Source: a virus
Lineage: Duplodnaviria > Caudoviricetes
Virus record (IMG/VR): IMGVR_UViG_2657245709_000001
Coordinates: 1 to 64,000 of that record
Reading direction: 5' to 3' (one strand)
DNA length: 64,000 nt
This document shows positions 6,684 to 58,692 of the stretch, piece after piece. The position numbers and the translations under genes are program-made. Each line of letters starts with the position of its first letter. Within the stretch, counting starts at the first letter, position 1. The notes under the pieces were generated by a model. The model was given only the letters and a program-made list of their open reading frames with translations, was not told where the DNA came from and did no database searches.

Positions 6684-7000
6684 GGGGTGCCGGGGGCGGC
6701 CGGCGTGCCGGTCTGGGTGGAGGTGGCGGCTTCGATGCGGGGCGCGATCCCCGAGGGGCGCCACAGGGTGTGGTAGGCGAGGCCGATCGCGACGGCGGCC
6801 GTGAGGATCCCGGTCGTGATGGGCTTCCCGGCGAAGTCGTCGTTGAAGTAGGCGGTGCCAGCGCCGTCGGCGACGGCGACGAGGAGCATGAAGATGCCCT
6901 TGACGGGGCCCGACCAGCGCGGCTGGACAACGATGGCGATGACGGGCGGCAGAGCGTAGCCGAGGGCCGCGGCCCAGAGCTCGGCGTTGGTGAGGTGCAT
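6680..7000 (-). CDS. Holin (106 aa)
   Basis: Three TM segments with PPVIAIVVQPRWS, directly downstream of the endolysin. Confidence 0.75.
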   Translation of the reverse strand: MHLTNAELWAAALGYALPPVIAIVVQPRWSGPVKGIFMLLVAVADGAGTAYFNDDFAGKPITTGILTAAVAIGLAYHTLWRPSGIAPRIEAATSTQTGTPAAPGTP

Positions 7001-8156: not shown

Positions 8157-8350
8157 CAGGAGCCTCCGCCGACGTCGTTGTGGTCCTGGTCCTTGAGGAG
8201 GGCGTTCGCCGCCGCGTGCCAGGCCGTCTGGATCCGCGCGGGCAGCGCCTCCCAGTCGGGCAGTGCGTCGCCGTTGAACGCTCGGCCGCCGACGGACTCC
8301 ACGTACGCCTCGTACGCAGTCTGGGCGGGCTGGTGGGGTTCGGGTGCCAT
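8156..8350 (-). CDS. Small phage protein (64 aa)
   Basis: ATG at 8350 with GGAGG RBS. AYEAY...LPDWEALP...AW pattern; coupled to the endolysin start. Confidence 0.7.
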   Translation of the reverse strand: MAPEPHQPAQTAYEAYVESVGGRAFNGDALPDWEALPARIQTAWHAAANALLKDQDHNDVGGGS

Positions 8351-8749
8351 GAGTGCCTCCTGATGGCCGGAGAAGGCCCCGCCGGCGCGGCTGGGACCAG
8401 GTTGTCGGTGAGCGGGGGTCAGGGCCGCTGTAGGGCGGCAGCCCCTCAGCCCTGGCGGGCTTCCGGGCCCCGCCGGGGCAGCGCACCAGCGTCGGCGGCG
8501 AACGGTCTGCCCGGGGTTCAACGACAGGAGTGGTGCGACCGGATAGGGCTGCGCTGGCACACGCGCACCTGGTCGGTCTGCTGTGCGCTTCGTCGTGGCG
8601 GGCGTTCTGTGGCCGAGGTCGTCGACGCCGAGGTGTGTGAGCACGAGAAGGGGGGAGGGAGGAGTGGTGCGGCCGGTGGGTGCCCACGGACCCGTGCGGT
8701 GGCGGTCACCCCGAGGGGTGGTTGATCAGCCAGGTACTAGTGCGCGCGC

Positions 8750-8930
8750 GGTGGTGACCCCGGCGGGAACGGTTTCCGGTCTCAGGTGGTGACCCCGGCG
8801 GGAACGGTTTCCGGAACCCGGTACGCACCGGGTTCCGGGTCCAGGGCGCCAGGCGCTCGGAACCCGGTGCGCACCGGGTTCCGGGTCCAGGGCGCCAGGC
8901 GCTCGGAACCCGGTGCGCACCGGGTTCCGG
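8750..8930. repeat. Composite repeat locus: two 30-bp direct repeats, then three 26-bp palindromes at 46-bp period
   Basis: GGTGGTGACCCCGGCGGGAACGGTTTCCGG at 8750 and 8785. CGGAACCCGGTGCGCACCGGGTTCCG at 8812 (1 mismatch), 8858 and 8904, separated by an identical 20-bp linker. Confidence 0.95.
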
Positions 8931-43178: not shown

Positions 43179-43409
43179 TCAGAGCGCCTTGATGATCAGG
43201 GCGAGGACAACGACTGCGACGATCGCTGCGAGGATCCGCGCCTGGACCAGGTCGAGCTGGTACGAGACGGGCTGGATGGTCTCGCCGATCGGGTGGTCGC
43301 CACCGTGAAACTCGTCGCGATGCCGCTGCCCGTGCTGCTGCGCGCCTGCCTCGAGCTCGTAGGGGCTCGACTCGGTGCGGCAGCCGGGGCAGACGTACTT
43401 GTGGGGCAT
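43179..43409 (-). CDS. Small zinc-finger protein with C-terminal TM anchor (76 aa)
   Basis: CPGC...HRDEFH followed by ILAAIVAVVVLALII. Confidence 0.7.
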   Translation of the reverse strand: MPHKYVCPGCRTESSPYELEAGAQQHGQRHRDEFHGGDHPIGETIQPVSYQLDLVQARILAAIVAVVVLALIIKAL

Positions 43410-43440
43410 CGTGTGCCTGCTCTCAAGGTCGGGTGCAGGT

Positions 43441-43485
43441 GGTAGACGAGGACGGTAGACGACCGGTAGATGAGGGCGGTAGATG
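43441..43485. repeat. Four 8-bp direct repeats GGTAGA(C/T)G, clt-like
   Basis: Copies at 43441, 43454, 43465 and 43478 in the intergenic gap right after the 43503-44654 stop codon. Confidence 0.85.
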
Positions 43486-43502
43486 GCGTCTGACCTGGGC
43501 TT

Positions 43503-44654
43503 CTACCTCCTTCCAGGGGTGGGGGCGAGAGCGGCCGGGAGCGGGGTGTGACTGGTGGTGCTGACGGGGGTCGAGGGGCGCCCCCCGTCGTCCTGCTGGA
43601 GCCGCCCCGCGAGCACCTCCACAGCGGCCTCCTCCTCGCCCCCGGCGGGGGCCCCGCTCTCGCCCCCAGCGGGGGCCTGCGGGGAGGCGTCCGTCCCCTC
43701 TCCCGAGGGGCCCGCGGGGAGGTCTGCGGCCGGTGCGTCAGCTGGGGTGCGGAGACGGTGCAGAGCATGCGCGACGGGCACCCCCAGAGCAGTAACCAGC
43801 TCGTCCACGTGGACGCCGTGGGTGGGCCCGGTCCCGGACCCCCGGATCTGCATCTGCTTCACCGGGATCCCCACCCGGCCACAGTGGGCGCGGAGCACGC
43901 TCACGTCCCACGTGTCGGGGACACCCGGTTCATCCAGCAGGTCTCGGAGGTGGATGCCCTTGCGACCGGCGGCGACCGCCGCGGCTACGCGTTCACACAC
44001 CGTGCGCAGCAGCCAGTGGGCGCCGCCGCGCACCGCTGCTTCGTCCGGTGGCCCGTCCGGCTCGTCCACTTCTTCAGCGGCATCCGGCTCACCGTCCAGA
44101 GTCTCCTCGCCCCCGTCGTCTTCTCGGGCCTTGGAGCGCTTCTCGAGGCGGGCTGCGGCCACCGCGGCGGCGCACCAGGCGACGGGCATACCCGGGGCGA
44201 CGGCGACGAGTTCAGGGACCAGCGCGTGAAGGCCGGCCTGGACGGGTCGGTGCAGGAAGCACCAGCCGACCCAGCCGACTCCGGCGACCAGAGCCGCCCG
44301 GTCCGCCGAAACGGCGAACAAGACGAACCCGCGCTTCGGCGCCTTCGGCTTCCCCTTCGCGGACTTCGACTTCTCACTCCCCGGCTTCTCGGCCTTCGGC
44401 TCCTCCGAGTCCGGCGGCCCCTGTCCGGGCTTCTCCGGCGCCTTGCTGGCCTCGGGCGCCGGGGCTTCTTGTTCCTTCGTCTCCTCCGAAGACCTGTCCT
44501 TCTTCACCGGCGTGGCCGTCGGGACACCGCGGGCCGCCTGGATGCCTTCGCGCGCGGCGTTGCGGGCGAGCCGGACCAGGATGCGGCTGCCGGTGCCGAT
44601 GTCGAAGTACACGTCCAGGAGCCGCTGGTACGGCTCGGCCTCGGGCTCGGTCAT
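43503..44654 (-). CDS. Membrane protein with a C-terminal winged-helix-like domain (383 aa)
   Basis: ATG at 44654, ATGA-coupled. Two hydrophobic segments, an acidic linker, then GIHLRDLL...WDVSVLRAHCGRVGIPV...GVHVDEL. Confidence 0.7.
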   Translation of the reverse strand: MTEPEAEPYQRLLDVYFDIGTGSRILVRLARNAAREGIQAARGVPTATPVKKDRSSEETKEQEAPAPEASKAPEKPGQGPPDSEEPKAEKPGSEKSKSAKGKPKAPKRGFVLFAVSADRAALVAGVGWVGWCFLHRPVQAGLHALVPELVAVAPGMPVAWCAAAVAAARLEKRSKAREDDGGEETLDGEPDAAEEVDEPDGPPDEAAVRGGAHWLLRTVCERVAAAVAAGRKGIHLRDLLDEPGVPDTWDVSVLRAHCGRVGIPVKQMQIRGSGTGPTHGVHVDELVTALGVPVAHALHRLRTPADAPAADLPAGPSGEGTDASPQAPAGGESGAPAGGEEEAAVEVLAGRLQQDDGGRPSTPVSTTSHTPLPAALAPTPGRR

Positions 44655-45106
44655 GACGGGCTGCCGAGGTTGCCGAGGGTGGTCCGCGCCGCATTGAGGA
44701 TGATCGCGCCGATGCCACCGGCCTCGACGAAGTACATGCTGGCGGCGAGGGCCAGCACAGCGGGGATCCACTTCCGCTTCCAGCCGGGCCCGACCGCCAG
44801 GAGCGTCAGGGCGATCGCCATGCCGCCGGCGCCGGGATCGTTGAATCCCGACTGCTGGACGGTCGACGCGGGGATGCTGCCGAGGCCAGTGATGACGTCG
44901 CGCCAGTTCCCGCCCGCGGCAAGGCACACCGACCCGGTGACCAGCGCCCAGCCGGTGATCCTCTCCTTCGTGTTGATGGGGATCCGGTTGGAGCCGCTCA
45001 CGCCCAGGCACAGGGCGAGGAACATGATCAAGGCGATCCCGGACAGCGTGATCGTGCCGAGCCAGTTGCCCTTGGCCAAGGCGCCGGGGGCAGCGAGGGT
45101 GAACAT
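44651..45106 (-). CDS. Multi-TM membrane protein (151 aa)
   Basis: ATG at 45106 with GAAAGG RBS. Four Gly-rich hydrophobic helices. Confidence 0.75.
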   Translation of the reverse strand: MFTLAAPGALAKGNWLGTITLSGIALIMFLALCLGVSGSNRIPINTKERITGWALVTGSVCLAAGGNWRDVITGLGSIPASTVQQSGFNDPGAGGMAIALTLLAVGPGWKRKWIPAVLALAASMYFVEAGGIGAIILNAARTTLGNLGSPS

Positions 45107-45119
45107 GTGCAGGGGCCTT

Positions 45120-46208
45120 TCAGCGAGGTCCGGGAGCGTAGAGAACAACCGCGAGGAGCGCGGAGGCGAGCGGGATCCGTGCGAGCCACCGCAGGAACCA
45201 AGGCTGGTACCTGAAACGGCGGTCGATGGCCCAGTAGAGGCCGCCGCACATGCCGGTGGAGGCCACCAGGAGCGCGACGCCGGAGGGATCCAGGCCCGCG
45301 TAGTGCCCGTACTGGCCCAGGACGCCGACGAGTTCGTGGGCGATGCCGGGCGCGTAGCTGGCGCCCATCGCTGTGACGACGGCACGGCCTACGAGACCGC
45401 CGGGCAGGATGCTCGCCACGACGTGCGTACCCGAGAGCCGCCAGGCGCCGTACCCGCAGCCCAGCGCGAGGATCGCGCCAGCGATGCCCACGGCCCCGTG
45501 ATCGGCCGTGTACAGGCACTCCCCGAGGACGTCGACCGCGCCGATGCTGTAGCCGACCGCGGCGGCGGTCCCGGTGAACAGGATCGGGCGCATGTAGTTG
45601 GTGGATGTGCTGCTCTTGCTGGAGGCCGGGGCCTTCCCCGTGGGGGCGACGGCGCCGGGGCGCACATCCGGCTCCTGGGCTGGGGTGCCAGCGGCGTCCG
45701 GGGGTTCCGGTTCGAGCTGCTCGTCGCAGATCACGCAGAGGTGAGCGACGAGTTCGCCGTACGGCTGGGCATGGACGGGCACCGTGCGCTCGTGCGTGCA
45801 CTCTGGTTCGGGCGGGTTCGACGCGGGCTTCGGAAAGGGCAGCATGTCGCGTATCCGGAGGCGGGGCGTGTCGGTGGCGGCCTGCGCGCTCGGAGCCTTG
45901 GCCGCAGGGGGCGGTCCGGCCGGAGGCCGCAGTTCCTCGGTGCCCGTCGGCTCGTGGCGTGCCGGTTGCGAGGAAGGAGGGGCGTCCTCACGGTCCTCCT
46001 GGTGGTGCCCGTCGTTCTCGTCGAAGTCGAAGTTGTCCCAGTCGGACGGGAACGGGCGCGAGGGCGGCGGCGGGGGTGGCGCGATGAAGGTGTCGTCCGG
46101 GGCGGCGGACGTACCCGCCGAGCGCGGGGTGAGCTGCACCGGAGATTCGGGCCCGGTCGGTGTGCTCTCCCCGCCGCTGGTCTCCTCGGTGCCTGACGTG
46201 TGGGTCAT
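45120..46208 (-). CDS. Membrane protein: Pro-rich N-terminus, Cys/His knuckle and about 5 TM helices (362 aa)
   Basis: ATGA-coupled. CTH...HLCVIC motif and a hydrophobic C-terminal half. Confidence 0.75.
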   Translation of the reverse strand: MTHTSGTEETSGGESTPTGPESPVQLTPRSAGTSAAPDDTFIAPPPPPPSRPFPSDWDNFDFDENDGHHQEDREDAPPSSQPARHEPTGTEELRPPAGPPPAAKAPSAQAATDTPRLRIRDMLPFPKPASNPPEPECTHERTVPVHAQPYGELVAHLCVICDEQLEPEPPDAAGTPAQEPDVRPGAVAPTGKAPASSKSSTSTNYMRPILFTGTAAAVGYSIGAVDVLGECLYTADHGAVGIAGAILALGCGYGAWRLSGTHVVASILPGGLVGRAVVTAMGASYAPGIAHELVGVLGQYGHYAGLDPSGVALLVASTGMCGGLYWAIDRRFRYQPWFLRWLARIPLASALLAVVLYAPGPR

Positions 46209-46372
46209 GACGACCGCACCCAGGTGTCGAGGAAGGCGAATGCGAGGGCCGCGGCAGCGAGGGTGATCGTGGCCTTTGCCCCGTCCCGGCCGGGCGCCAG
46301 CACGGTCAGCGTGAGCGCTCCGGCCAGGCAGAGCATGTACAGGCCGGTCAGGGCGAGGTGGAGGGTGTGCAC
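46205..46372 (-). CDS. Unannotated 55-aa two-helix membrane peptide
   Basis: GTG at 46372 with GAAGAGGA RBS. Translates as MHTLHLALTGLYMLCLAGALTLTVLAPGRDGAKATITLAAALAFAFLDTWVRSS; the stop overlaps the next ATG. Confidence 0.7.
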   Translation of the reverse strand: MHTLHLALTGLYMLCLAGALTLTVLAPGRDGAKATITLAAAALAFAFLDTWVRSS

Positions 46373-46403
46373 AGCGGGGTCCTCTTCGGGAATCGGGCGC
46401 GGG

Positions 46404-48431
46404 TCAGACCAGCGCGGCGATCTTGGGCAGGGTGTAGCCGCGCGCGATGAGGTCAGCGGCTTCGCGGCGGCGGTCGCTCGCGGTGGACACGGACACGGAG
46501 AGGGCCTCGGCGATCTCGGCGAGTTCGACCGCGTCCGGGAGACCGCCGGCGGTGAGGATCATCCGGGCGACGCGGCGGGTGTCCCGCTCCCGCGGGGTGA
46601 GCCGGGCGGCGTCTTCCGCTTCGACGGCGCGGAGTTCCGTTTCGGCGGCGCGGCGCCGCGCTTCGACCGCGTCGAGACGCTCCGTCTCGGCAGCGCGCCG
46701 GGCTTCAGCGGCGCGCCGCTCAGACACTGCGGCATCCTCGTTGATCTTGGCGGCGCGCAGCCGTTCTTCAGCGGTCCGCGCCTCCGTTCCGACCGCGCGC
46801 CGGTCCGTTTCGGCAGCAGCGGCACGCGCTTCGGCCGCGCACCGTTCCGCGTCGGCGGCGGCCGTCAGACGGCGGCTCCGCTCCTCGGCGGCCTCCACCG
46901 CGGCCTGCTGCGCGGCGGTGACGTCCTGCTCCGTTTCGAGCGCGCGTCGGCGCGTTTCGACAGCGGCCTTGTGGGCTTCGGCGGCGGCCTTCTCGTTCTG
47001 CGCGATCTCCTGCTCGCGGCGCGCGGTTTCGGCCAGGGCGGCGAGGGTCTCCGCGTCGCTGTCGGCGGCGGCGCGGCGGGCTGCCGCCGCTTCGGCCTCG
47101 AGCCGGTCGGCCTCGGCTGTCGCGGCGGCCGCCGCGGCACGGTCCTCGGCGGCCTGCCGCGCGGCGGCGGCGGCGAGCGCCGACTCGGTGGCCTCCGCTT
47201 CCTGGATCGCGACCCGCTCCTCCGCCTCCGCGACCGCGGACGCCTTGGCGTACGCGGCGCGGGAAGCGACCGAAGCGACCGACTTCCGAGCCTCGGCCCG
47301 CTCCTCCGCTTCGGCGACCTCGGCCTGCTTGGCCAGGAGACGGATCCGGGCGTCGGCCGCGCGGATCTGGGCATCGACTGCCTCCTGCTCAGCGGTCTCC
47401 TGCTGCTGCGCCGTCTGGTCTGCCTCGGCCTGGCGGGCCTGCTCCGGGATCGCGAGCGCCTCGGCGACCGTGAGCCCGTAGCGCGCCATCGTGATCGGCA
47501 GCAGCGCCTCCTTCGGCGCGGACTTCCAGCCGCGCGGGTACCGCTCCCCCTTGGGGTAGAGGCGGTCCAGCTCCGCTCGGTAGATGAGCTGGTCACAGCG
47601 CCTGTCTACCGCTTCCTGGTAGGAGCTGATGCGCAGCAGGACCATGTCCCGGAACAGCAGGTAGGCGCCGAGCGGGTTCAGGAGCCAGCGCTCGCGCGGG
47701 ATGCTTTCCCGCGCCTCCTCACCGGCCTCGATGGCCTCGAGGCGGGTCACCTGCACGATGACCTTCCGCGCGGCCTCGACGGCGATGACGAACATCACCG
47801 GGATCACCGCGTGCATGCCGACACCGACCGGGTCCGCGGTCAGCGACCGTCCGCCGGACGCCGCGTTGAAGATGATCGTCGCGGCGGTGAAGGCGTGGGC
47901 GGTGAGGCGTACGAGGGGCCAGCGGATCCGGCGGCGGGTGAGGACGAGGTCGAGGGCGTAGAGGACGACGATGCCGACGTCGACGCCGATCGGGAAGACA
48001 GCGGCGAAGTCGCCGAAGCCTCGTTTTTCGGCCATGCGGACGAGGGCCCGGTAGGAGCCGTAGAAGCCGATCCCGGCGAGCCCGAGGCCGCCGAGGAGTG
48101 CGAGGAGGTTGAGGCCGTGGTGGGCTGCCCTCGGAACAGATTCCTGCGCGCTCGGAACGCCCGGGCGCGCGCCCGGAACGGCAACCGGTGCGCTCGGAAC
48201 GGCCCGGGTACGCGTCTTCGCACTGCGGGTGCGGCGCTGCGCGAAGGGCAGCCACGGACGGCGCTGGACGTCTGCGCTCGGAACGCCCGGGCGCGCGCTC
48301 GGAATGGTGGGCGGTGCGCTCGGAACGCCCGGGCGCGCGGTCGGAATGGTGGGCGGTGCGCTCGGAACGGCGGCGGGTGTGCCCGGGGCGGGGCGGCGGC
48401 GCCGGGTCACGAAGCGCGGCAGGAGGGGCAT
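46404..48431 (-). CDS. DUF2637-type (plasmid spread, Spd-like) membrane protein with long coiled coil and terminal HTH (675 aa)
   Basis: ATG at 48431 with GGAAGG RBS. GFYGSY...FPIGVD...TIIFN...HAVIP 4-TM domain, Ala/Glu/Arg coiled coil, then LAEIAEALSVSVSTASDRR. Confidence 0.8.
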   Translation of the reverse strand: MPLLPRFVTRRRRPAPGTPAAVPSAPPTIPTARPGVPSAPPTIPSARPGVPSADVQRRPWLPFAQRRTRSAKTRTRAVPSAPVAVPGARPGVPSAQESVPRAAHHGLNLLALLGGLGLAGIGFYGSYRALVRMAEKRGFGDFAAVFPIGVDVGIVVLYALDLVLTRRRIRWPLVRLTAHAFTAATIIFNAASGGRSLTADPVGVGMHAVIPVMFVIAVEAARKVIVQVTRLEAIEAGEEARESIPRERWLLNPLGAYLLFRDMVLLRISSYQEAVDRRCDQLIYRAELDRLYPKGERYPRGWKSAPKEALLPITMARYGLTVAEALAIPEQARQAEADQTAQQQETAEQEAVDAQIRAADARIRLLAKQAEVAEAEERAEARKSVASVASRAAYAKASAVAEAEERVAIQEAEATESALAAAAARQAAEDRAAAAAATAEADRLEAEAAAARRAAADSDAETLAALAETARREQEIAQNEKAAAEAHKAAVETRRRALETEQDVTAAQQAAVEAAEERSRRLTAAADAERCAAEARAAAAETDRRAVGTEARTAEERLRAAKINEDAAVSERRAAEARRAAETERLDAVEARRRAAETELRAVEAEDAARLTPRERDTRRVARMILTAGGLPDAVELAEIAEALSVSVSTASDRRREAADLIARGYTLPKIAALV

Positions 48432-48495
48432 CAGCGGGGGCCTTCCAGGAGCGAACCGAGCGGCTTCGGGCGGGCAGACCGACGCCCTCGGAACG
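48130..48495. repeat. Ten copies of CTCGGAA(C/T)G-like motif in 21-bp phase
   Basis: Copies at 48130, 48151, 48172, 48193, 48277, 48298, 48319, 48340, 48361 and 48487. All offsets are multiples of 21. Confidence 0.85.
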
Positions 48496-48517
48496 GGGCG
48501 TCGGCCGGTGGGGCGGG

Positions 48518-48871
48518 TCAGTAGCGGTCGCCGACGTGGGTCCGGCGCCAACGGGAGCTGCTGACGCAGACCGTGGTGCCGGTGTCGAGCAGGAGCTGCC
48601 AGCACTCGGCGGTGCGGTGCGGTACACGGCGGGTTCCGGCGGGTACCTGGCGGCACGTGCGGACGGTTGTGGTCTTCCGCAGGCGGTGCTTGGTCTGGGT
48701 GGTGCACACGCTGCGGTTGCGGCGTTCGCTGGTCCACGTGGTGTGCGCCGCGGTGTGCGTCTTCTCGACGACCCGGCCGTGCGCCGGGCTGCTGGAGTGG
48801 CCCGGCGTGCAAGCGGTGAGCGCGACGGCGAGCACGACCGCGGCCGCCGCGCCCCGCGCGGCCCTGTTCAT
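48518..48871 (-). CDS. Basic lipoprotein (117 aa)
   Basis: ATG at 48871, ATGA-coupled. Lipobox LTAC; Arg/Thr-rich with four further Cys. Confidence 0.75.
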   Translation of the reverse strand: MNRAARGAAAAVVLAVALTACTPGHSSSPAHGRVVEKTHTAAHTTWTSERRNRSVCTTQTKHRLRKTTTVRTCRQVPAGTRRVPHRTAECWQLLLDTGTTVCVSSSRWRRTHVGDRY

Positions 48872-49242
48872 TCCTGCCCTCCGGAGGGCAGGAACTTGGT
48901 CGCGGTCGCATGGACCGTCAGCCCGTCGACGACGCTGCGGACATCGACGTAAAGCGAACTGGAGCTGAAGGGCGTCTCCGCGACGGGGGCGCCCCAGTGC
49001 TCCGCCCACTGCCGGACGTCCTCCGGGCTCTCACAGAGGATCTGGATCCAGCTCGAGTCGCCGGGCTTCTCTCGGCTCCCGAAGTGGACGTCGACCGAGG
49101 AGGGAAGGGGCAGATGAGTGGGGAGCGAGGGGATGAGGGCGCGCGCTCGCTGGCCGAAGCGGAACGCGGCAGCCTCGACCTGGTCGACGCCGTGCTGGAG
49201 CTGCGACTCGATTGCGGCCCATCCGGGTCCGGGGCTGGTCAC
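48868..49242 (-). CDS. Hypothetical protein (124 aa)
   Basis: GTGA/ATGA-coupled on both sides. Confidence 0.7.
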   Translation of the reverse strand: MTSPGPGWAAIESQLQHGVDQVEAAAFRFGQRARALIPSLPTHLPLPSSVDVHFGSREKPGDSSWIQILCESPEDVRQWAEHWGAPVAETPFSSSSLYVDVRSVVDGLTVHATATKFLPSGGQE

Positions 49243-49814
49243 AGGTCACCGTCCAGCTCGGCGCGCTGGTCGGCGGCGGCGAGGGTCTCACCGGCGCGGG
49301 CCAGGGCGTTGGAGACGCAGGTGGGGGTGCAGTACCAGCGGTAGACGTCGTCGGTGCCGGCGACCAGGAGCCGGGTCCAGCCGAACATGTCGACGGGGTC
49401 GAAGTCGTGGTCGGTCCCGCAGCCGCGGGTGGGGCAGACGGCGGCGAGGTCGCGGAGCTCCACGTCGAGGAGCGACGCGAGCCGGACCCGCTCCTCCGGC
49501 AGGATCTCGACGTTCACAGCGATGCCGGCGTCGCTGGCGCACCTGATGACGGCCCTTTCTGTGAGCGCGGTCCCGTCCGGGTAGTCGACGCTGCCCGCCC
49601 AGTCGAGGTTGAGGGCGACGGGTGTGGAGGACTGCGCCCACTGGCGCAGATGGAGGACAGCGTCGCCGCGGCCGGGGTCAAGCTCCCAGTCCTGCGGGAG
49701 GCTCTCGATCTGGTTGGCGGCGTCGGAGAGGACGCCGAGCCGAACGGCGCTGCCGAGGATCTTCCGCAGGGCCCGGTGACGGGCGGTGAAGAGGTGTTCG
49801 GGCGTGTGCTTCAC
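49239..49814 (-). CDS. Hypothetical protein with C-terminal Cys motif (191 aa)
   Basis: GGGAG RBS. CPTRGC...YCTPTC. Confidence 0.7.
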   Translation of the reverse strand: MKHTPEHLFTARHRALRKILGSAVRLGVLSDAANQIESLPQDWELDPGRGDAVLHLRQWAQSSTPVALNLDWAGSVDYPDGTALTERAVIRCASDAGIAVNVEILPEERVRLASLLDVELRDLAAVCPTRGCGTDHDFDPVDMFGWTRLLVAGTDDVYRWYCTPTCVSNALARAGETLAAADQRAELDGDL

Positions 49815-49836
49815 GATCTGGTGCTCCCTGTCTGGG

Positions 49837-51201
49837 TCAGCGTCGCCGGAGAGCGAGCTGGAGGGTCGTTTCGTTGTCGGCGTGGGGGTCCAGGAGCTTC
49901 GCGACGGGCGGCAGTTGCTGGGTTGCGTCAGGGGCCGGGCGCGGGGCGGGGAGGGTGGGGCCGGCGTGAGCGTTGCCGCGGGTGACCCATCCGCGGTCGC
50001 GGAGCTTGGCGACGGCCCAGTACTTCGCCGGGTAGATCACGGCGACCTTGACGATGAGCTCGACCGGGGTGGCCCACAGCCACGTGAGCAGCTTGGTGGT
50101 CCAGTGCATGTGCGGCCGGCGGATCATGTACTGGGCGGTCTCGGCGTACCGGATGGCGAGGTAAGAGCCGAAGGCGATGGCCACGTACTCGGGGGCGGTG
50201 TGGAAGAAGACGCCGGACGCGGTCATGGTGAGCAGGACCGGCAGCATGATCCACTGGGTGACGGCGAGGAGGGGGAAGAGGAGCTTCTTCCACTCCAGGT
50301 TGATCACCGCGAACGGCAGAGCCTGCCAGGACGACTTGCCCCAGCGGAGACGCTGTTTGAAGAGGCCGCCCAGACTGTCGGGCATCGCGGAGTGGACGAC
50401 GGCGTCGTTGACGACGACGACGTCTCCCCGCAGCAGCGCATACATGGTGAGGCGGCGGTCGTCGCCGTTGGTGCCGGAGGACACGTAGTCGGCCAAGTTG
50501 TCGAAGACCACGTGGGCCCGGTAGAGGGCCAGAGCGCCGGAGGTGGTCTCCACGGCACCCAGGACGGACCGGGACGAGCGGATCATCAGGCAGGACGTGC
50601 CGATGTTCAGGTCCGAGATCCGGGTGATCCAGTTGTCGGCGAAGTTCCGGGTCAGGATCAGGCCCGTCGCCGCCATGACGCGCCGCTTCGACATGGCGCG
50701 CATGAGGTGCTCGAGGGCGTCGTCCCCGGGCACGGAGTCGGAGTCGACGGTGAGGATGAAGTCCCAGTCCTGGCGGCGCAGCGTCTGCAGGACGCCGGCC
50801 TGCGCGCAGCGCTTACCGCCGTTGGGTTGCCGGTGCCAGCGGATCTTCGGGTGTGGAAACGGGCGGACCGGGGCCTTTGCGGAGCCGTCGTCCATGACGT
50901 GGATCTCGGTGACGGGGTAGGTCTGCCGCAGCAGCGCGTCGAGCGCGGCGCGCAGCAGCTCGGGTTCTTCCTCGAAGGCGGGGACGATCGCGACGACCCG
51001 CCCGGTCGCGATGCGGCGCCGCGACCAGTGCGAGTTGACCTCGAGGGAGGAGATGTAGAAGGTGATGAGCCCTGCGTCGAACAAGTACAGGGCGGTCAGG
51101 AAGTGCCGGTCGCTGTCGCCGATGGCGAGGTGGTAGGTGGCCGCCCAGGCGGCCACCCCCACCGCGCCAAAGACGCAGGCGGCGAGCCTGCTGTACCTCA
51201 T
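49837..51201 (-). CDS. Processive GT2 polysaccharide synthase, hyaluronan synthase (HasA)/NodC-like (454 aa)
   Basis: Two N-terminal and about 3-4 C-terminal TM helices. Motifs DDGS, GKRCAQ, LTVDSD, SGALALYR, GDDRRLT and QRLRWGKS. Confidence 0.92.
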   Translation of the reverse strand: MRYSRLAACVFGAVGVAAWAATYHLAIGDSDRHFLTALYLFDAGLITFYISSLEVNSHWSRRRIATGRVVAIVPAFEEEPELLRAALDALLRQTYPVTEIHVMDDGSAKAPVRPFPHPKIRWHRQPNGGKRCAQAGVLQTLRRQDWDFILTVDSDSVPGDDALEHLMRAMSKRRVMAATGLILTRNFADNWITRISDLNIGTSCLMIRSSRSVLGAVETTSGALALYRAHVVFDNLADYVSSGTNGDDRRLTMYALLRGDVVVVNDAVVHSAMPDSLGGLFKQRLRWGKSSWQALPFAVINLEWKKLLFPLLAVTQWIMLPVLLTMTASGVFFHTAPEYVAIAFGSYLAIRYAETAQYMIRRPHMHWTTKLLTWLWATPVELIVKVAVIYPAKYWAVAKLRDRGWVTRGNAHAGPTLPAPRPAPDATQQLPPVAKLLDPHADNETTLQLALRRR

Positions 51202-51359
51202 CAGCCCGCGTACCTCTTTCCGCGGTTCGCGGCGCGGTAGATCAACGCACCGCCCACGACGAGCGCGATGATCGCGGCAATGGTCCAGCTGAATGCCGCG
51301 GTGCCTCCGAAGAGCGCGACGGACGCGCCGGTCTTCGCGAGGGTTCCTCTCCCGTACAT
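51201..51359 (-). CDS. Unannotated 52-aa peptide resembling a bare LAXTG sortase sorting signal
   Basis: AGGAG RBS, ATG at 51359. Translates as MYGRGTLAKTGASVALFGGTAAFSWTIAAIIALVVGGALIYRAANRGKRYAG; the stop is coupled to the synthase ATG (TGATG). Confidence 0.85.
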   Translation of the reverse strand: MYGRGTLAKTGASVALFGGTAAFSWTIAAIIALVVGGALIYRAANRGKRYAG

Positions 51360-51386
51360 GACCTGTTTCTCCTGTGAGTTGGGCGG

Positions 51387-52637
51387 CTAGAGCCGCTCGA
51401 TGTGCGGGGCGACGGGCATGACGCCCCGCGTGTCCAGCACGTAGGCCGACCCGTCGGCGACGCGCTGGAGGTCGAACTCGTCGTGCGGTGTGAGCAGCAC
51501 GACGGCGTCGTAGTGGCTCAGGTCGTCCGGCACCCGCGAGCCGGTGATCCCCACGTAGTTGGGCATCGGGCTCGGGTCGATGACGGTGACGAGCGCTCCC
51601 TTCGCAGTGAGGCGCCTGATGACCTCGAGCGCCGGGGACTGGCGCATGTCGGCGGTGCCGGGCTTGTAGGCCGCGCCGAGCGCGAGGATCCGGGCTCCGA
51701 ACATGCCCAGGTGGTGGCGCTGGTTGATGCCGTCCTGAAGGCGCTGGACCACGTAGTCGGGCTGGACGCTGTTGATGTCCTGGGCGAGCTCGACGAGGCG
51801 GACGGCGTGGCCGTGGCGGGTGCGGGCGTGGTGGGTGAGGTAGACGGGATCAACCGGCAGGCAGTGCCCCCCGACGCCCGGCCCCGGCAGGAACTTGGCG
51901 AACCCGAACGGCTTGGTGCCCGCCAAGTCGAGGGTGCGCCAGACGTCGGCGCCCAGGACGTGCGCGAGCTGGGCGAGTTCGTTGACGAGGGCGATGTTGA
52001 CGTGCCGGAACGTGTTCTCGAAGACCTTCGCGAGCTCGGCTTCCTCGAGGGTCTCGGCGAGGACGGTGCATTGGGTGATCCCGGCGTAGAAACGCTCGGC
52101 CAGGTCGCGGCAGCCGCGGGTGAGTCCGGACACGATCTTCGGGGTGTTCCCGAACGTCCACGCCGGATTGCCGGGGTCGATCCGCTCGGGGCTGAAGCCG
52201 ACGTGGAAGTCCTCACCGGCGGTCCATCCGGTGGCCTTCTCCAGGATCGGGACGACGATGTCGCGGGTGGTGCCCGGGTACGTCGTGGACTCCAGCACGA
52301 CCAGCGCACCGGCCTGCAGGTGTGCGGCGAGGGTGCGGGTCGCGTTCTCGACGAAGGACAGATCGGGCTGGCCGTTGGCGAGGGGCGTGGGCACGGTGAT
52401 GACGGCGACGTCGTAGTCGGCGAGCTCTGCCGGGTGGCGGGTGGGCTCGTAGCGGCCGGTCAGCAGAGCTCCGGCCAGCGCCTGGTCGTCGACGTCGTCG
52501 ACGTACGACTTGCCGTTCATGAGGTGGAGCAGTCGCTCCTCGGCGGGTTCGAACCCGATGACGGTGTGGCCGGCGGTGACGGCGGCCATGGCGAGGGGCA
52601 GGCCGACGTAGCCCTGCCCCATCACGGCGATCTTCAC
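51387..52637 (-). CDS. Nucleotide-sugar 6-dehydrogenase, UDP-N-acetylhexosamine (WbpA/WecC/TviB) type (416 aa)
   Basis: GQGYVG, TVPTP, ESTTYPGTT, SPERIDPG, KVFENTFR, GPGVGGHCLPVDP and AYKPG. Confidence 0.95.
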   Translation of the reverse strand: MKIAVMGQGYVGLPLAMAAVTAGHTVIGFEPAEERLLHLMNGKSYVDDVDDQALAGALLTGRYEPTRHPAELADYDVAVITVPTPLANGQPDLSFVENATRTLAAHLQAGALVVLESTTYPGTTRDIVVPILEKATGWTAGEDFHVGFSPERIDPGNPAWTFGNTPKIVSGLTRGCRDLAERFYAGITQCTVLAETLEEAELAKVFENTFRHVNIALVNELAQLAHVLGADVWRTLDLAGTKPFGFAKFLPGPGVGGHCLPVDPVYLTHHARTRHGHAVRLVELAQDINSVQPDYVVQRLQDGINQRHHLGMFGARILALGAAYKPGTADMRQSPALEVIRRLTAKGALVTVIDPSPMPNYVGITGSRVPDDLSHYDAVVLLTPHDEFDLQRVADGSAYVLDTRGVMPVAPHIERL

Positions 52638-52687
52638 GAGTGGAGGTCCTTCCAGATACCGGAAGCTGGGGTCAGCGGAGGCGGGGC

Positions 52688-52921
52688 CTAGACGTGTCCG
52701 GTCGAGGGCGCCCAGTCGGCGGCGTGCTTCCGGGCGGGGCAGGGGCTGTTCCCCGGGAGAAGCCCCTCGCGGATTCCGGACTCTCCGGTCGTCTCGCGCT
52801 GCTGCTGGGCCGTGCGCGAGTTCCGGAGGTCGGCGGCGCAGCGCGCCAGGAGCTCGGGGGCCGTGGCGCCCAGGTCCTCGACGACGTCGGTGAGGTCGAC
52901 GGGTCCCAGGTCGCGGCTCAC
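52688..52921 (-). CDS. Hypothetical protein (77 aa)
   Basis: GTGA-coupled to the upstream gene. Confidence 0.55.
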   Translation of the reverse strand: MSRDLGPVDLTDVVEDLGATAPELLARCAADLRNSRTAQQQRETTGESGIREGLLPGNSPCPARKHAADWAPSTGHV

Positions 52922-53256
52922 TGCGCCACCGCCAGCGTGCGCAGCCGCGCCGCGTACTCGGCGATCGTTCCGTCCACCGGGGGCAGCGCCTGTGTGACGA
53001 GCGGGCCGACGAGGGCTCGGTGGTCGTAGGACACGGCGGGCAGGAGGCTGCCGATGATGCTGGGGGTGAGGGTGGCGAGGTAGCCGCTGGTCATGCAGGG
53101 CTGCCAGGTGCCGCCGAGGGGGTGCTGGCGGGTGGCGAGCTGGGCGAGCCGACCGGCGAGGGCGATGAAGGCGCGGGCGGTGGTGGTGCGGCGCCAGGTG
53201 GAGTCGTCGTGGGGTGCGGGCCCGTTGCCGGTGGTGTGGTCGGTACGGTTGGGCAT
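52918..53256 (-). CDS. Hypothetical protein (112 aa), first gene of the leftward operon
   Basis: ATG at 53256 with GAAAGGG RBS. Confidence 0.65.
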   Translation of the reverse strand: MPNRTDHTTGNGPAPHDDSTWRRTTTARAFIALAGRLAQLATRQHPLGGTWQPCMTSGYLATLTPSIIGSLLPAVSYDHRALVGPLVTQALPPVDGTIAEYAARLRTLAVAQ

Positions 53257-53348
53257 GTCTGCCCTTTCGTCGCTGTCAGGGTGGACGCCCCCCGTCCCAA
53301 TGGGCATGCAGGCCCGGGTCGGGGGGCTTTGTGCATCAGCAGCCATCG

Positions 53349-53396
53349 GGCTGCTTCCGCCACTGTATGGCATGCCATACGCTTGCGGAAGCGGCC
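53349..53396. promoter_or_regulatory. Nested palindromic operator in a divergent promoter region
   Basis: Perfect 16-bp core GTATGGCATGCCATAC (53365-53380) with symmetric outer arms GCTTCCGC / GCGGAAGC. Confidence 0.75.
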
Positions 53397-53418
53397 TGCC
53401 CAAATCCCGAAGGAGCAG

Positions 53419-53745
53419 GTGTTGATCGAGGAGGAGGTCCAGCGGGTGGTCGACGCGGTGAACGCAGTGAGGGTCATCGAGGATCCCGAACGCCGGGGGC
53501 GAGCCATCACCCAGCTCCTCAAGGCGCAGTCCGAGGGGGAGCCGGACCTGCGCGAAGAGCGCCGCCGAATCGTGCTCGACTGGCGCGCGGAGGTTCCGCC
53601 CGTGTCTTTCCGTGTGATCGCGACGCGCCTCGGTGTGTCCCTGGGCACGGTGCAGGACATCGTGCGCGGACATTCCGGCCCCTGGGGCAACCGGAGGAAG
53701 CCGAAAAAGGGGGAGGCGGAACCCGAGGCGCCCGAAGGCGCCTGA
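53419..53745 (+). CDS. Small HTH repressor (about 108 aa)
   Basis: AAGGAG RBS; GTG 53419 or TTG 53422. SFRVIATRLGVSLGTVQDIVRG HTH. Confidence 0.82.
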   Translation: MLIEEEVQRVVDAVNAVRVIEDPERRGRAITQLLKAQSEGEPDLREERRRIVLDWRAEVPPVSFRVIATRLGVSLGTVQDIVRGHSGPWGNRRKPKKGEAEPEAPEGA

Positions 53746-54622: not shown

Positions 54623-55426
54623 TCAGGCAGCGGGTGCGCCCTGTGCCCGCTCCGTGGCCAGCGCCTGGTGCCGGTCGTTGCTGCGTCGGGCCCCATCAGG
54701 GCCTACTGCAGCAGTCAGGGCCCGGCATCGCAGTTCCGCCCACAGTGCGACGGCAGCCGGGTCGGCGGCACGCCACGCGGGTACGGTGCTGGCCCAAGCG
54801 CTGGCGCCGGCCGCAGTGTGGCCGTCCTCGATGAGCCGGATGGCGGTTTCGGCGGTGTCGGCCCAGGCGGGGCCGCGTGCGGCGAGCGCCCAGTCGACCA
54901 GCCAGATACGGGTGCTGTCGGCGAGGAGGTTGTGGGGGTTGATGTCGCCGTGGACGAGGTGGGTTCCGTGCAACTGCTCAAGCTCCCCTGGCGTGGCGTG
55001 TGCGGCCCACTGGTCGGACCAGGAGGGGAGGTGAGGTGTGCTGGGGGCCGGCAGCTCGGCGGCGGTGAGGAGGTCGGCGACGGCGGCGAGGTGCGGGGAG
55101 CCGGGGGTGAGGTCGGCGTGGAGGCCGTCGACGGCGTGGAAGGCGATCAGGTCCCAGTCCCAGGAGGAGCAGGAGGAGGTGGTGCGCCACAGGAGTGCGG
55201 GCGCCGCGGGGCCGGTGTGGGGTGCGACGGCGGCTTCTCGGTCATGGCCGGCGGAGTGCCCCCGGGTGGCCTTCACGAAGAGTGCTCCGCTGCCGGTGTC
55301 GAGGACGGCTGCAGCGTGGCAGTTGAACCCGGCGGTGATGTCGCGTACGGCGGTGATGGTCCCGTGCCGGGTCGTCACGGCGTCGTGGATGTGGGCCGGG
55401 AGCCCGGCCCACGGGATGTGGGTCAC
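54623..55426 (-). CDS. APH/choline-kinase-like phosphotransferase (267 aa)
   Basis: GTG at 55426 (GTGA-coupled). GFNC loop, FVK, Brenner motif HGDINPHN and LVDW. Confidence 0.88.
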   Translation of the reverse strand: MTHIPWAGLPAHIHDAVTTRHGTITAVRDITAGFNCHAAAVLDTGSGALFVKATRGHSAGHDREAAVAPHTGPAAPALLWRTTSSCSSWDWDLIAFHAVDGLHADLTPGSPHLAAVADLLTAAELPAPSTPHLPSWSDQWAAHATPGELEQLHGTHLVHGDINPHNLLADSTRIWLVDWALAARGPAWADTAETAIRLIEDGHTAAGASAWASTVPAWRAADPAAVALWAELRCRALTAAVGPDGARRSNDRHQALATERAQGAPAA

Positions 55427-55500
55427 TGCTGGGTGGCCCCGCATTTGCGGCAGCGGTTCGCGCCGCTCCACTGGACCCATTCGTGATCGCATTCGGCCAT
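55423..55500 (-). CDS. Unannotated 25-aa Cys/His micropeptide
   Basis: GAAAGGA RBS 8 nt before ATG 55500. Translates as MAECDHEWVQWSGANRCRKCGATQQ; the stop overlaps the kinase start. Confidence 0.7.
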   Translation of the reverse strand: MAECDHEWVQWSGANRCRKCGATQQ

Positions 55501-55738
55501 GGCGGGCATCCTTTCGTGCTGGTACGGGCGGCACTGTAGTGGTGGCGGGGGCGTGCCGGGAGGGCGCACGGAGGCGTGGACGGCTCGGTCCGGCTCCCTG
55601 TTCGTTCGTCTCGAACGCTCGGCAACGCGAGCGCTACGGGTGTCACAGCCAGGTGACGAGGCACCGGTTCGTCGTCGACGGCTGGGGCTGCGGGTGGATG
55701 CTCGCTGCTCCGAAGTTGATCTGAATCGAGGGGGCGTC

Positions 55739-57147: not shown

Positions 57148-57344
57148 GGGCCCTCCAGGGTTGTGCAGTGGTCGCCGTGGGTGATCTGGCGGTGCAGGGT
57201 GCGCACGCGGCGGACGGAGCGGGCGTAGCTGATGGCGGTGCAGAGGGCGATGACGCCCGCGGTGACGAACGTCAGTAGACCGCCTGCGATGCAGAGGAGG
57301 GCGGCCAGGACGAGGAGGCCGGGGCCGGCGGACAGGTCATGCAT
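57144..57344 (-). CDS. Small membrane protein (66 aa)
   Basis: ATG at 57344, long hydrophobic stretch. Confidence 0.55.
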   Translation of the reverse strand: MHDLSAGPGLLVLAALLCIAGGLLTFVTAGVIALCTAISYARSVRRVRTLHRQITHGDHCTTLEGP

Positions 57345-58692
57345 CGCGCACCACGTCCTCGCCCTCGCCCAGCGCCAGGAGTCGGACGTGCCCGCGCATC
57401 CGCTCGTACTTCTGCTCCGTGTCGTGCCCGTCCCACTGCGCCCGCTCATCGTCGGCGTTGACGGGCGTCACGTGCTGGACGAGGTCGGCGTCGCGCGGGT
57501 GGATGTGCCAGGACATCTGCCGTCCGCCGACGGTCAGGTAGAGGAGCTGCCAGCCCTCCTGGTCCTCGACGTCCAGGGCGGGGGTGCGGACGGCGTTCGC
57601 GGGGTGGAGGGCGGCGAGCCAGGCGAGGAGCTGCGCGCGCTCGCGGTATGCGGCGTCGCGCTCGGCCTCCGCGCGGCTGAGGTGGCAGGCGTAGCACCAG
57701 TCCGCGCAGGGGAGTTGCTCGGTGCTTCCGTCGGGGTTGCGGAGACTGAAGCGGATGTGGTTGTTCATGCCGCGGTCGATGAAGGCCAGCCAGTGAGCGG
57801 TCTCTGTGCGAGCGGCTTCGACGTCGCGGATCTCTGCGTCGATGAGGGTGCGCAGGAGGTGGCTGTCTTCGGGGGTGAGGCTGTGGGTGGCGCGAGCGGC
57901 GAGCAGCCGCATGGTGTGACGGCGGCCGTCGGGGTTGTCCTCGTCCGAGGGAAGCGGGGTGATCGCGGTGTGCAGCTCGGCGAGTCGGGCGTCCCACCAC
58001 CGGGCCATGGAGACGCCGAGCGGCGGTGCTCCGGCGGCGATCCACCGCTCGTACAGGGCGACGACCCGGGCGTCCGGTGTCAGCGGTGTGGACGACGGGG
58101 GCGTGGCGTCGAGTTGGCGGACGAGCTCGAGGCGGGCCGCGTCATCGATGCCGGGGCGGGGAGTGACCAGAGACTCGCGGAGGGCGGCGAGGCGTTGTTC
58201 GGCGTCGCCGTCGCAGCGGTGCTCGGGGCCACCCCAGGTGCGGAGGCATGCCTTGCACCATGCCTCCGCGTCGTCGATGTCGAGGTACTCCTCCAGGACG
58301 GCGAGCGCCGTGGCGGAGGCCTTCTCCGCGTCGAATCCGGCTTCCTGTCCGTGGCCACTGCTGCAGGCCGTCTTCAGCGCGGTGGCAAGGCGATCCTGGA
58401 GGGGGTGCGTCGGGTCGGGTGCGGGGCGTGCCTGGATGGTGCAGGGGTCGATGGTGATGGTGCGGTGTTCCGTCTGTGGGGAGCCGCCGGTGGTGACCTT
58501 CCGCCAGGCGCTGCCGTCCTCGTCGTCGAGGTAGAAGGTGTGGCTTGCGTAGGTGACTTCGACGACATCGCGGAGGGTGCCGGTGAGGTGCCGGGCCCAG
58601 TAGGCGGGGAAGGCGGTGTTGTCGGTGACGACGGCTCGGAGGCGGCGAGCGGTGCAGGGGTCGCCGTTCCAGCGGGTCTCGGTCATGGTCAT
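57337..58692 (-). CDS. Multi-domain mosaic early protein with C-terminal WDGH-motif domain (451 aa)
   Basis: AYRERAQLLA...GW...QMSWH...WDGH. Confidence 0.75.
   Translation of the reverse strand: MTMTETRWNGDPCTARRLRAVVTDNTAFPAYWARHLTGTLRDVVEVTYASHTFYLDDEDGSAWRKVTTGGSPQTEHRTITIDPCTIQARPAPDPTHPLQDRLATALKTACSSGHGQEAGFDAEKASATALAVLEEYLDIDDAEAWCKACLRTWGGPEHRCDGDAEQRLAALRESLVTPRPGIDDAARLELVRQLDATPPSSTPLTPDARVVALYERWIAAGAPPLGVSMARWWDARLAELHTAITPLPSDEDNPDGRRHTMRLLAARATHSLTPEDSHLLRTLIDAEIRDVEAARTETAHWLAFIDRGMNNHIRFSLRNPDGSTEQLPCADWCYACHLSRAEAERDAAYRERAQLLAWLAALHPANAVRTPALDVEDQEGWQLLYLTVGGRQMSWHIHPRDADLVQHVTPVNADDERAQWDGHDTEQKYERMRGHVRLLALGEGEDVVRDA

Follow-up and report, generated by a model that had tools for sequence, protein, structure and literature searches.

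A locally regulated accessory operon of a temperate Streptomyces siphovirus shares a membrane-protein cassette with plasmids and may encode a DNA-handling membrane complex

In a 64,000-nt stretch of viral DNA (IMG/VR record IMGVR_UViG_2657245709_000001, positions 1 to 64,000; hereafter the window) we found an operon-like block of 14 minus-strand genes, running from 53256 down to 43179, that encodes a long DUF2637 membrane protein together with a set of smaller membrane proteins and genes for glycan synthesis. The carrier, about 76 kb long, is a temperate siphovirus of Streptomyces in the integrated state, and the window corresponds to G000:C4:335993-399992 on contig C4 of the source genome. 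We tentatively read the block as a locally regulated accessory operon whose membrane proteins would form a complex that handles DNA, and we put the probability of this reading at about 0.42. It is favoured because of the link of the DUF2637 protein and its neighbours to plasmids and integrative and conjugative elements of actinomycetes (AICEs), the presence of two membrane proteins with domains resembling DNA binders, and a phased array of short motifs at the start of the DUF2637 gene.

The G+C content was 70-73% throughout the window, and genes were therefore called by third-position G+C (GC3) frame analysis together with reading of the sequence. The 14 genes are all co-oriented in the order p112, p77, UDP-glucose dehydrogenase, p52, family 2 glycosyltransferase (GT2), p191, p124, lipoprotein, DUF2637 protein, p55, X362, Y151, Z383 and W76. 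Stop and start codons overlap at 6 of the 13 junctions, the remaining gaps measure 13-93 bp, and we infer that the genes are co-transcribed. By a crude hydropathy scan, each of the six genes in the stretch that begins with DUF2637 and ends with W76 has transmembrane (TM) segments, as do the GT2 and p52. A previous sequence-only reading of the window had described about 14 co-oriented, often coupled genes between 53256 and 43179, with several membrane proteins besides the DUF2637-like one, a lipoprotein, and a polysaccharide cassette (here a UDP-glucose dehydrogenase and a processive-type GT2), and all of this was borne out. The lower boundary was not, as the co-oriented string extends past 43179 into phage genes conserved in relatives, including those for a zinc-finger protein and a DNA methylase. 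The block has the orientation of the lytic genes and is positioned between replication and structural genes.

The DUF2637 protein (675 aa; 46404..48431, minus strand) showed a firm match to PF10935 with 105 bits against a gathering cut-off of 22.8 (E 4.8e-30, residues 110-271), and matched two PHROG families of unknown function (phrog_32569, E 5.6e-109). Its AlphaFold2 (AF2) model, with a mean predicted local distance difference test score (pLDDT) of 73.9, consists of a disordered N-terminal tail, four TM segments, a confident juxtamembrane helical domain, a coiled coil or long helix of about 290 residues and a C-terminal three-helix bundle resembling a helix-turn-helix (HTH) domain. The 4-TM/coiled-coil/HTH architecture proposed earlier agrees with this predicted structure, whose HTH-like end aligned with HTH domains in Foldseek, none of them significantly (best E 0.89). 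A PDB sequence search with the DUF2637 profile returned only low-complexity and coiled-coil noise.

Downstream, also on the minus strand, p55 (46205..46372) is a two-TM peptide with ATGA coupling to X362 (45120..46208), a membrane protein with a C-terminal TM bundle and no family. For X362 we found 29 homologous clusters, of which the named ones were all 'hypothetical protein' from Streptomyces or Actinacidiphila, and in the ESM Atlas only 'hypothetical protein' clusters with scores <0.9. Y151 (44651..45106) is a small polytopic membrane protein, and its stop overlaps the start of Z383 (43503..44654), an overlap seen also in five of five relatives. Z383 comprises an N-terminal helix, a Lys/Glu/Pro-rich linker, two TM segments and a winged-helix-like domain that would be cytoplasmic. 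Homology searches gave 46 Z383 representatives at E<=0.001. Z383 itself had no Pfam match at E<=0.1, and at that level any one family matched 3 of the 38 aligned members at most. In its AF2 model (mean pLDDT 71.8) residues 205-302 reached a pLDDT >90, with helices (H) and strands (E) in the order H-E-H-H-E-E-H-H. Top Foldseek matches were winged-helix DNA binders, albeit not significant (best E 0.15, TM-score 0.56 to 2pg4), and neither this model nor that of the DUF2637 protein gave any match at E<=0.001. Despite the TM segments and the winged-helix-like end, Z383 has no ATPase domain. The last gene, W76 (43179..43409), encodes a protein with a CPxC...H-rich N-terminus and one C-terminal TM segment (phrog_32136, E 1.3e-5), and a homologue is found at the equivalent position on plasmid L005 and in five of five relatives.

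Searches of plasmid records with the DUF2637 protein (tblastn) returned 341 records, 327 of them from Streptomyces, and only 2 and 1 plasmid matches were obtained for X362 and Z383, respectively, which were syntenic. On the 312-kb linear Streptomyces plasmid NZ_CP108096 a GntR gene, small genes and a DUF2637 gene are followed by homologues of X362 (38% identity, E 9e-20), Y151 (E 1e-8), Z383 (E 3e-8) and W76 (E 3e-8), and the five-gene string DUF2637-X362-Y151-Z383-W76 is collinear between plasmid and prophage (E 4e-39 to 3e-8). The sole FtsK-like match of this plasmid is weak and lies about 52 kb from the cassette. The best plasmid match of the DUF2637 protein was with pFP3 (NC_023067, Streptomyces sp. 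F2), a 34-kb linear plasmid, at 47-62% identity and with the C-terminal domain included. There, a GntR gene faces an operon in which WhiB and DUF2637 precede two small genes and an FtsK/SpoIIIE gene. The annotations of pFP3 include terminase, portal, capsid and tape-measure genes, and its divergent repressor facing a DUF2637 operon recalls the window. In contrast to the window element, which is integrated, lacks FtsK and has four other genes after DUF2637, pFP3 is a linear plasmid record with ParA, DnaB and GntR and carries its FtsK/SpoIIIE gene two genes downstream of DUF2637. The prophage is not a phage-plasmid of the pFP3/pZL12 kind: it is integrated and flanked by host genes, its left end carries a tyrosine integrase, and FtsK is absent (no search for ParA was made).

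The source genome itself provides a link to conjugative elements. A pSAM2-type element (G000:C30:40001-56000, L008) encodes, in this order, GntR, a 118-aa protein, an FtsK-like protein (459 aa), a short DUF2637 protein (242 aa), SpdB, two small proteins, RepSA and Int, with a Pfam SpdB match to PF05122 at E 7.6e-29, RepSA at E 3.9e-152 and a NUDIX gene beside GntR. The gene that follows traSA in pSAM2 is presumably spdA. A second FtsK-DUF2637 pair is located at G000:C9:106.4-109.5 kb with a homologue of pIJ101 SpdA just downstream, and an FtsK-like gene was found 2-3.5 kb after a long DUF2637 gene in pFP3 and in 4 of 16 genome contig loci. Because of the L008 element, the C9 pair and the plasmid loci, we regard DUF2637 proteins as regular members of tra-spd regions. 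As further observations on this genome, L008 looks like a complete integrative conjugative element, and contig C2 carries two copies of a gene (G000:C2:90819-91664 and 108412-109257) with 66-68% identity to pIJ101 SpdB, a weak FtsK-domain match being found about 2 kb from each; these two loci look like integrated pIJ101-type transfer regions. Another long DUF2637 gene (G000:C25:73786-75381, L009), 46% identical over the domain, has no other cassette gene beside it and host-like surroundings.

The block itself resembles tra-spd operons of the pSVH1, pIJ101 and pSAM2 type in its small membrane proteins, which are often coupled in translation and stand under a divergent repressor, and in its DUF2637 protein, a homologue of which stands between the FtsK-like gene and Pfam SpdB in the genome's own pSAM2-type element. 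It differs in that FtsK/TraB is missing, the regulator is a small HTH protein rather than GntR, the DUF2637 protein is a long form whose coiled coil leads to an HTH-like end, and the carrier is a tailed prophage. Thoma et al. (2015) describe SpdB2 of pSVH1 as a four-TM oligomeric pore former that binds dsDNA, and the predicted architecture of the DUF2637 protein, with four TM helices and an HTH-like end in its AF2 model and thus possible DNA binding, recalls this description. The same source names VWB and phiC31 as two phages with SpdB2 homologues (Thoma et al. 2015). VWB encodes a DUF2637 protein, gp24 (E 1.2e-35; identity over the domain 46-48%), followed by two genes of similar size (gp25 and gp26), one with a weak match to Z383 (E 0.005), and VWB likewise has no FtsK domain. 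Unlike the window, VWB showed no detectable homologues of X362, Y151 or W76 and no glycan genes in the 18.6 kb examined; gp24-gp26 are all annotated as hypothetical. No DUF2637 match was found in pIJ101 or phiC31. Since gp24 of VWB is a DUF2637 protein but phiC31 has none, we do not equate DUF2637 with SpdB2. A direct assignment by name was also attempted and abandoned: a tblastn search of plasmids with the short DUF2637 protein of the AICE gave 2 records, and the sole gene name under a match was DUF2637. Similarly, pIJ101 SpdB was dismissed as a relative of DUF2637 by BLASTP and hhalign.

Comparison with five related prophage loci (L010-L014), a survey of the kind that the sequence-only reading had called for, showed that the cassette is kept in all five, in different species and between the same phage genes. 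Cassette proteins are 34-74% identical across these relatives versus 82-88% for the flanking methylase. This conservation bears on the possibility that the block is an independent mobile element, such as an AICE or plasmid fragment inserted in the prophage, or else an inert leftover of recombination between phage and plasmid. Such an origin would suit the homology and synteny shared with plasmid cassettes, and the pFP3-like records annotated with both phage structural genes and FtsK/SpoIIIE. We nevertheless consider it very improbable because the cassette occupies the same site in five of five relatives and neither ends nor mobility genes were detected: there is no integrase, replication or transposase gene and no flanking repeat in 42.5-54.5 kb. 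The base composition of the block also matches the rest of the phage, all frames are intact and the coupling is conserved.

A screen of IMG/VR with the DUF2637 alignment gave 82 relatives, and we retained 80 loci. The small HTH gene that lies opposite the block had a homologue in 18 of the 80 loci, divergent and mostly 0.6-2.9 kb upstream of DUF2637, as well as in four of the five close relatives. Homologues of p77 preceded DUF2637 in 5 of the 80 loci, namely at a distance of 0.4-1.2 kb in L083, L095, L098 and L100, and upstream of a GT2 plus DUF2637 in L072 (all tblastn). Fifteen of the 80 loci had an FtsK-like tblastn match within 10 kb, two of which look like the host's own FtsK. A search of whole records for PF01580 (FtsK/SpoIIIE) covered the first 50 of the 80 loci and gave matches in 12, and in 6 of 23 records estimated to be >=90% complete. 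Given these counts, a unit of small HTH, p77 and DUF2637 is recurrent in temperate actinophage contigs, mostly without a translocase. The carriers checked were mostly temperate, because 13 of the first 50 records with DUF2637 are of the provirus class and a tyrosine integrase was found in four of five complete records with direct terminal repeats. The full cassette occurred among the 80 loci only in L026 (the same provirus as L012), and in part in L046. One record, L027 (IMGVR_UViG_3300042934_000712, 37.8 kb, direct terminal repeats, called complete), encodes right after its long DUF2637 gene an FtsK-like protein 82% identical to that of pFP3, and L029 and L030 are similar. Elements that join an FtsK/TraB-like gene and a viral classification seem to recur in metagenomes.

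The third line of evidence is an array of nine (C)GTTCCGA(G) motifs (48128..48494, minus strand) that spans the start of the DUF2637 gene and its first ~100 codons. The motifs are positioned at 48128, 48149, 48170, 48191, 48275, 48296, 48317, 48359 and 48485, and all nine are in 21-bp phase. GTT accounts for 8 of the 10 Val codons within codons 1-110 of DUF2637, whereas none of the 38 Val codons further along the gene is GTT and 14 other window genes use it for 18 of 632 (2.8%). In an alignment with L010-L012 the motif islands were invariant and the spacers variable across the four phages, and L014 carries a variant array with seven copies of CGTTTCGA in clusters, the distance between neighbours within a cluster being a multiple of 21 bp. 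The array is under constraint at the DNA level, and is most simply explained as a putative protein-binding array, for which the clt of conjugative plasmids offers a parallel. The signal lies in the phased cluster, as the number of motifs across the window at <=1 mismatch was no higher than in shuffled sequence. The exact 10-mer GTTCCGAGCG also occurs twice on the minus strand between the lysin and tail genes, at 8854-8863 and 8900-8909. These copies are 46 bp apart and lie about 39 kb from the main array at 48.1-48.5 kb. Within the coiled-coil part of the DUF2637 gene, the segment 46615-46986 is built of 21-nt (7-codon) repeats; inverted CGTT[CT]CGA copies occur in this region at 46785, 46932 and 46953 (plus strand), and a 30-nt stretch shows 80% complementarity to a portion of the upstream array.

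The array invites a different explanation, in which DUF2637 and its partners have a kil-type function, permeabilising the membrane or forming pores for lysis timing or host take-over, and the motifs are repressor operators that silence a toxic gene. The location of the array over the 5' end of DUF2637 and the region upstream would be a good place for repression. The plasmid cassette lies behind a GntR repressor as in the Kil-Kor pairs described by Thoma et al. (2015), and SpdB2 is reported to form pores and to promote spheroplast formation. Still, at least nine phased sites over about 370 bp far exceed a usual operator, a pore would require neither a coiled coil of 290 residues that ends in an HTH-like domain nor a winged helix anchored in the membrane, and the phage has a lysin gene with small neighbours about 40 kb away. 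We therefore see little chance for a kil-type function.

Following the reading as a DNA-handling operon, the old core would be the unit of small HTH, p77 and long DUF2637 protein, which in this phage family would have been extended downstream by p55, X362, Y151, Z383 and W76. The DUF2637 protein and Z383, together with their small coupled partners, would form a membrane complex that holds phage DNA at the membrane via the 21-bp-phased GTTCCGA array, as TraB holds clt repeats. A comparable domain logic is known from p16.7 of phage phi29, whose membrane anchor, coiled coil and C-terminal DNA-binding domain tie replicating phage DNA to the membrane, although p16.7 is small, has one TM segment and acts in a unicellular host. 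As the phage has no FtsK-type motor, the complex would only tether replicating phage DNA or distribute it among genome copies and hyphal compartments, or else hand it to a translocase of the host or an AICE. The glycan genes, under the same regulator, would add a surface polymer containing uronic acid that serves conversion or exclusion. A bolder version, which we regard as distinctly unlikely, is virion-free spread of the genome between hyphal compartments or chromosome copies: a TraB-less Spd-type complex would grip the clt-like array and borrow a translocase of the host or an AICE, and remodelling of the cross-wall or surface in the course of this spread would fall to the co-regulated glycan genes. 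Binding of TraB to clt repeats of 8 bp is described by Thoma et al. (2015).

Several results weigh against DNA handling. The source genome has 14 matches to PF01580, none of them within C4:336-412 kb, which covers the window and the rest of the prophage, and none of the FtsK matches in the genomes of the five relatives was on the cassette contig (0 of 5). The absence of an FtsK/TraB ATPase noted from the sequence alone therefore holds for the window and also beyond it, and no ATPase or translocase was found in the prophage or on the five relatives' cassette contigs. In pSVH1, by comparison, spreading needs TraB together with the Spd proteins, and Spd proteins are defined by the loss of pock formation or intramycelial spread on deletion (Thoma et al. 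2015). An operon shared with, or next to, a TraB gene was found only for DUF2637 homologues elsewhere and not for the block, which likewise encodes no FtsK/SpoIIIE ATPase domain as found in TraB/FtsK-type translocases. A further difference from tra-spd operons is that SpdA, SpdB and KilB of pIJ101 showed no similarity to block proteins or the DUF2637 profile (BLASTP E>1, hhalign probability 0.2%), with nothing below E 0.6 in tblastn of the pIJ101 proteins against the window. SpdB (PF05122) had no match in the ten block proteins covered by the Pfam scan (W76 and p55 included, p52 left out). The lack of a DUF2637 match in phiC31, which is cited for an SpdB2 homologue, means that DUF2637 may not be the SpdB2 family. 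Neither fold match to DNA-binding domains reached significance, at best E 0.15 for Z383 and 0.89 for DUF2637. The array, absent from the plasmid cassettes and pFP3, may be a mere operator set for the small HTH protein. Finally, exclusion or conversion would better fit an operon that holds a lipoprotein and swappable glycan genes. Of the proposal of a plasmid-spread-like operon, what stood up is the collinear cassette of NZ_CP108096 and the place of DUF2637 in a pSAM2-type tra-spd region, but homology to pIJ101 SpdA, SpdB and KilB or to PF05122 did not materialise; the fold and homology searches that it called for gave no match to these Spd proteins and no significant fold, with HTH and winged-helix DNA binders as top folds. 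The link to transfer machinery is one of gene context.

Exclusion or conversion leads to the main rival, in which the whole operon is a module for superinfection exclusion or envelope remodelling (lysogenic conversion). The glycan pair would coat or alter the wall, the lipoprotein and membrane proteins would block DNA entry of phages or conjugative elements, and the small HTH protein would set the level in the lysogen. The presence of the glycan pair speaks for such a role. The UDP-glucose/GDP-mannose dehydrogenase (416 aa; 51387..52637, minus strand) is a full-length family member with matches to PF03721, PF00984 and PF03720 (E 1e-34 to 3e-18) and phrog_9148 (E 3.9e-58), and is present in four of five relatives. 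The processive-type GT2 synthase (454 aa; 49837..51201, minus strand) resembles NodC, hyaluronan synthase and chitin synthase (PF13641, PF00535, PF13632, PF03142) and has a catalytic domain, a QRLRW (QxxRW-type) motif in its translation, and TM segments. Its scores were far under the curated cut-offs for hyaluronan synthase or NodC equivalogs (NodC TIGR04242: E 8.7e-34, 117 bits against 550; PgaC: 68 bits against 422). Apart from a GalT1, its PDB sequence matches were only hyaluronan synthases (E 3.9e-4), and many homologues are labelled 'hyaluronan synthase' by JGI. A processive synthase gene beside a UDP-glucose dehydrogenase gene is also the arrangement of the has and cps3 loci, and the window pair, with a QxxRW-type GT2 with TM segments next to the dehydrogenase, resembles hasA/hasB, cps3S/cps3D and the chlorovirus hyaluronan synthase; it differs from these uronic-acid synthase pairs in the weak match of its GT2 (E 3.9e-4) and a NodC score far under the cut-off. 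From the enzyme pair we infer that the product may be a uronic-acid polymer.

A synthase-type GT2 sits at the equivalent position in five of five relatives but belongs to a different subfamily that tblastn did not detect, and in L010, L012, L013 and L014 this GT2 of another subfamily lies upstream of DUF2637 at the position of the window GT2. The sugar-polymer specificity thus looks to have been swapped by cassette exchange among relatives. The glycan set of dehydrogenase, GT2, small membrane peptides and lipoprotein appears to split an older core by insertion, and to have been exchanged since, because p77 adjoins DUF2637 in simpler loci. Variation of the GT2 subfamily at a kept position is typical of arms-race surface functions and, together with the lipobox lipoprotein, the faster divergence of cassette proteins (34-74%) than of the flanking methylase (82-88%), the module's own divergent regulator with palindrome and the mostly temperate nature of the DUF2637 carriers checked, argues for exclusion. 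On the other hand, it leaves unexplained why two membrane proteins carry cytoplasmic domains resembling DNA binders, why a motif array is conserved at the DNA level, and why DUF2637 is repeatedly paired with FtsK-type genes in AICEs and pFP3-like elements. The operon is moreover oriented as the lytic genes, between replication and structural genes, and PADLOC gave no match for the 10 block proteins scanned. Exclusion by the whole operon is in our view less likely than DNA handling, of which it is the nearest competitor, and both may be true for different halves of the operon.

Upstream of the block, the small HTH protein (108 aa; 53419..53745, plus strand) is encoded divergently and showed a weak match to HTH_23 (E 2.3e-4, 21.3 bits, under the 24.6-bit cut-off); its start is probably GTG at 53419, after AAGGAG, as read from the sequence. 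The opposing HTH gene of the earlier account is thus real, while its role is that of a local regulator and not of the phage repressor, because the likely immunity switch, a divergent Cro/C1-type HTH pair, lies about 21 kb to the right of the block. In the 162-bp divergent intergenic region, a 48-bp palindrome (53349..53396) with overlapping 25-nt arms of 84% complementarity is a candidate operator. A sigma-70 consensus scan for promoters found none, and terminator-like sites were few and weak; a hairpin after p124, located inside the lipoprotein gene, was no more stable than shuffled sequence.

The remaining genes of the block, all on the minus strand, are small. The first gene, p112 (52918..53256), was called from its GC3 frame and ribosome binding site, belongs to no family and had no Pfam, NCBIfam or PADLOC match. 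It is followed by p77 (52688..52921), a small conserved protein. Between the glycan genes, p52 (51201..51359) encodes, by translation and hydropathy, a single-TM peptide whose stop overlaps the GT2 start. Its 52 aa read LAKTG, a hydrophobic stretch and a basic tail, similar to a sortase sorting signal, yet without signal peptide or passenger domain, and the resemblance could be due to chance. A soluble protein with a Cys-rich C-terminus, p191 (49239..49814), has no family and no Pfam or PADLOC match, and its homologues lie directly upstream of DUF2637 in L010-L012. For p124 (48868..49242), also of no family, there was no homologue in the related prophages. The lipoprotein (117 aa; 48518..48871) is ATGA-coupled to p124 and has a signal peptide and a lipobox cysteine (LTAC) as judged by eye (MNRAARGAAAAVVLAVALTAC...); it had no Pfam match and a homologue (51%) only in L012/L026. 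NCBIfam gave no match for block proteins except the weak ones of the GT2, and a megablast search of the block against the phage collection gave none.

At its left end the prophage carries a tyrosine integrase (window 1-1431); the left flank consists of host genes with a GDSL lipase gene directly adjoining. Its tailed-phage nature is evident from its portal gene (phrog_2662, E 1.2e-87) and from those for the large terminase and the tape measure, and a GH25 lysin gene is located at 7074-8687, about 40 kb from the block and beside small genes (5891-7000). The phage had been taken as complete within the window, which it is not, because prophage genes continue to the right until the host adenylosuccinate lyase gene. 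This right-hand part of about 11.9 kb, reaching to about window 75.9 kb, encodes a Phage_zn_bind_8 protein, WhiB, an ECF sigma factor and the Cro/C1-type pair. No repeat of >=18 bp that could mark attachment (att) sites was found between the prophage flanks, a 10-bp repeat at window -12 and 75919 being without extended similarity and not claimed as att, and there were no tRNA genes in the window or flanks. Just upstream of the block, a 303-aa protein (54623-55534, minus strand) showed weak aminoglycoside-phosphotransferase-like and RIO kinase matches (E ~1e-5 to 1e-4). Further upstream, a 451-aa protein (57337-58692, minus strand) belongs to no Pfam family. In 12 of the 80 IMG/VR loci a homologue (45-67% identity) is encoded a few kb upstream of DUF2637, and the protein may be part of a conserved early region with DUF2637.

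Streptomyces hyphae hold many chromosome copies in connected compartments, and plasmids and AICEs meet the resulting whole-hypha problem with TraB plus Spd proteins. We know of no account of the means by which temperate phages make a whole hypha lysogenic or exploit it. Use of Spd-like proteins by phages is suggested once in the literature searched, in one sentence of Thoma et al. (2015), and we found no paper there that tests it. New here are the cassette of five genes that lacks TraB and is also present on plasmids, the combination of this cassette with glycan genes under a single local regulator, and the array of motifs. The locus makes the question of phage Spd-like proteins testable, as it offers a defined five- or six-gene phage/plasmid cassette, two candidate membrane-anchored DNA binders and a conserved phased array as their possible target. 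More generally, DUF2637 genes occur commonly, though without annotation, in contigs of temperate actinophages, and glycan genes can ride in the same operon.

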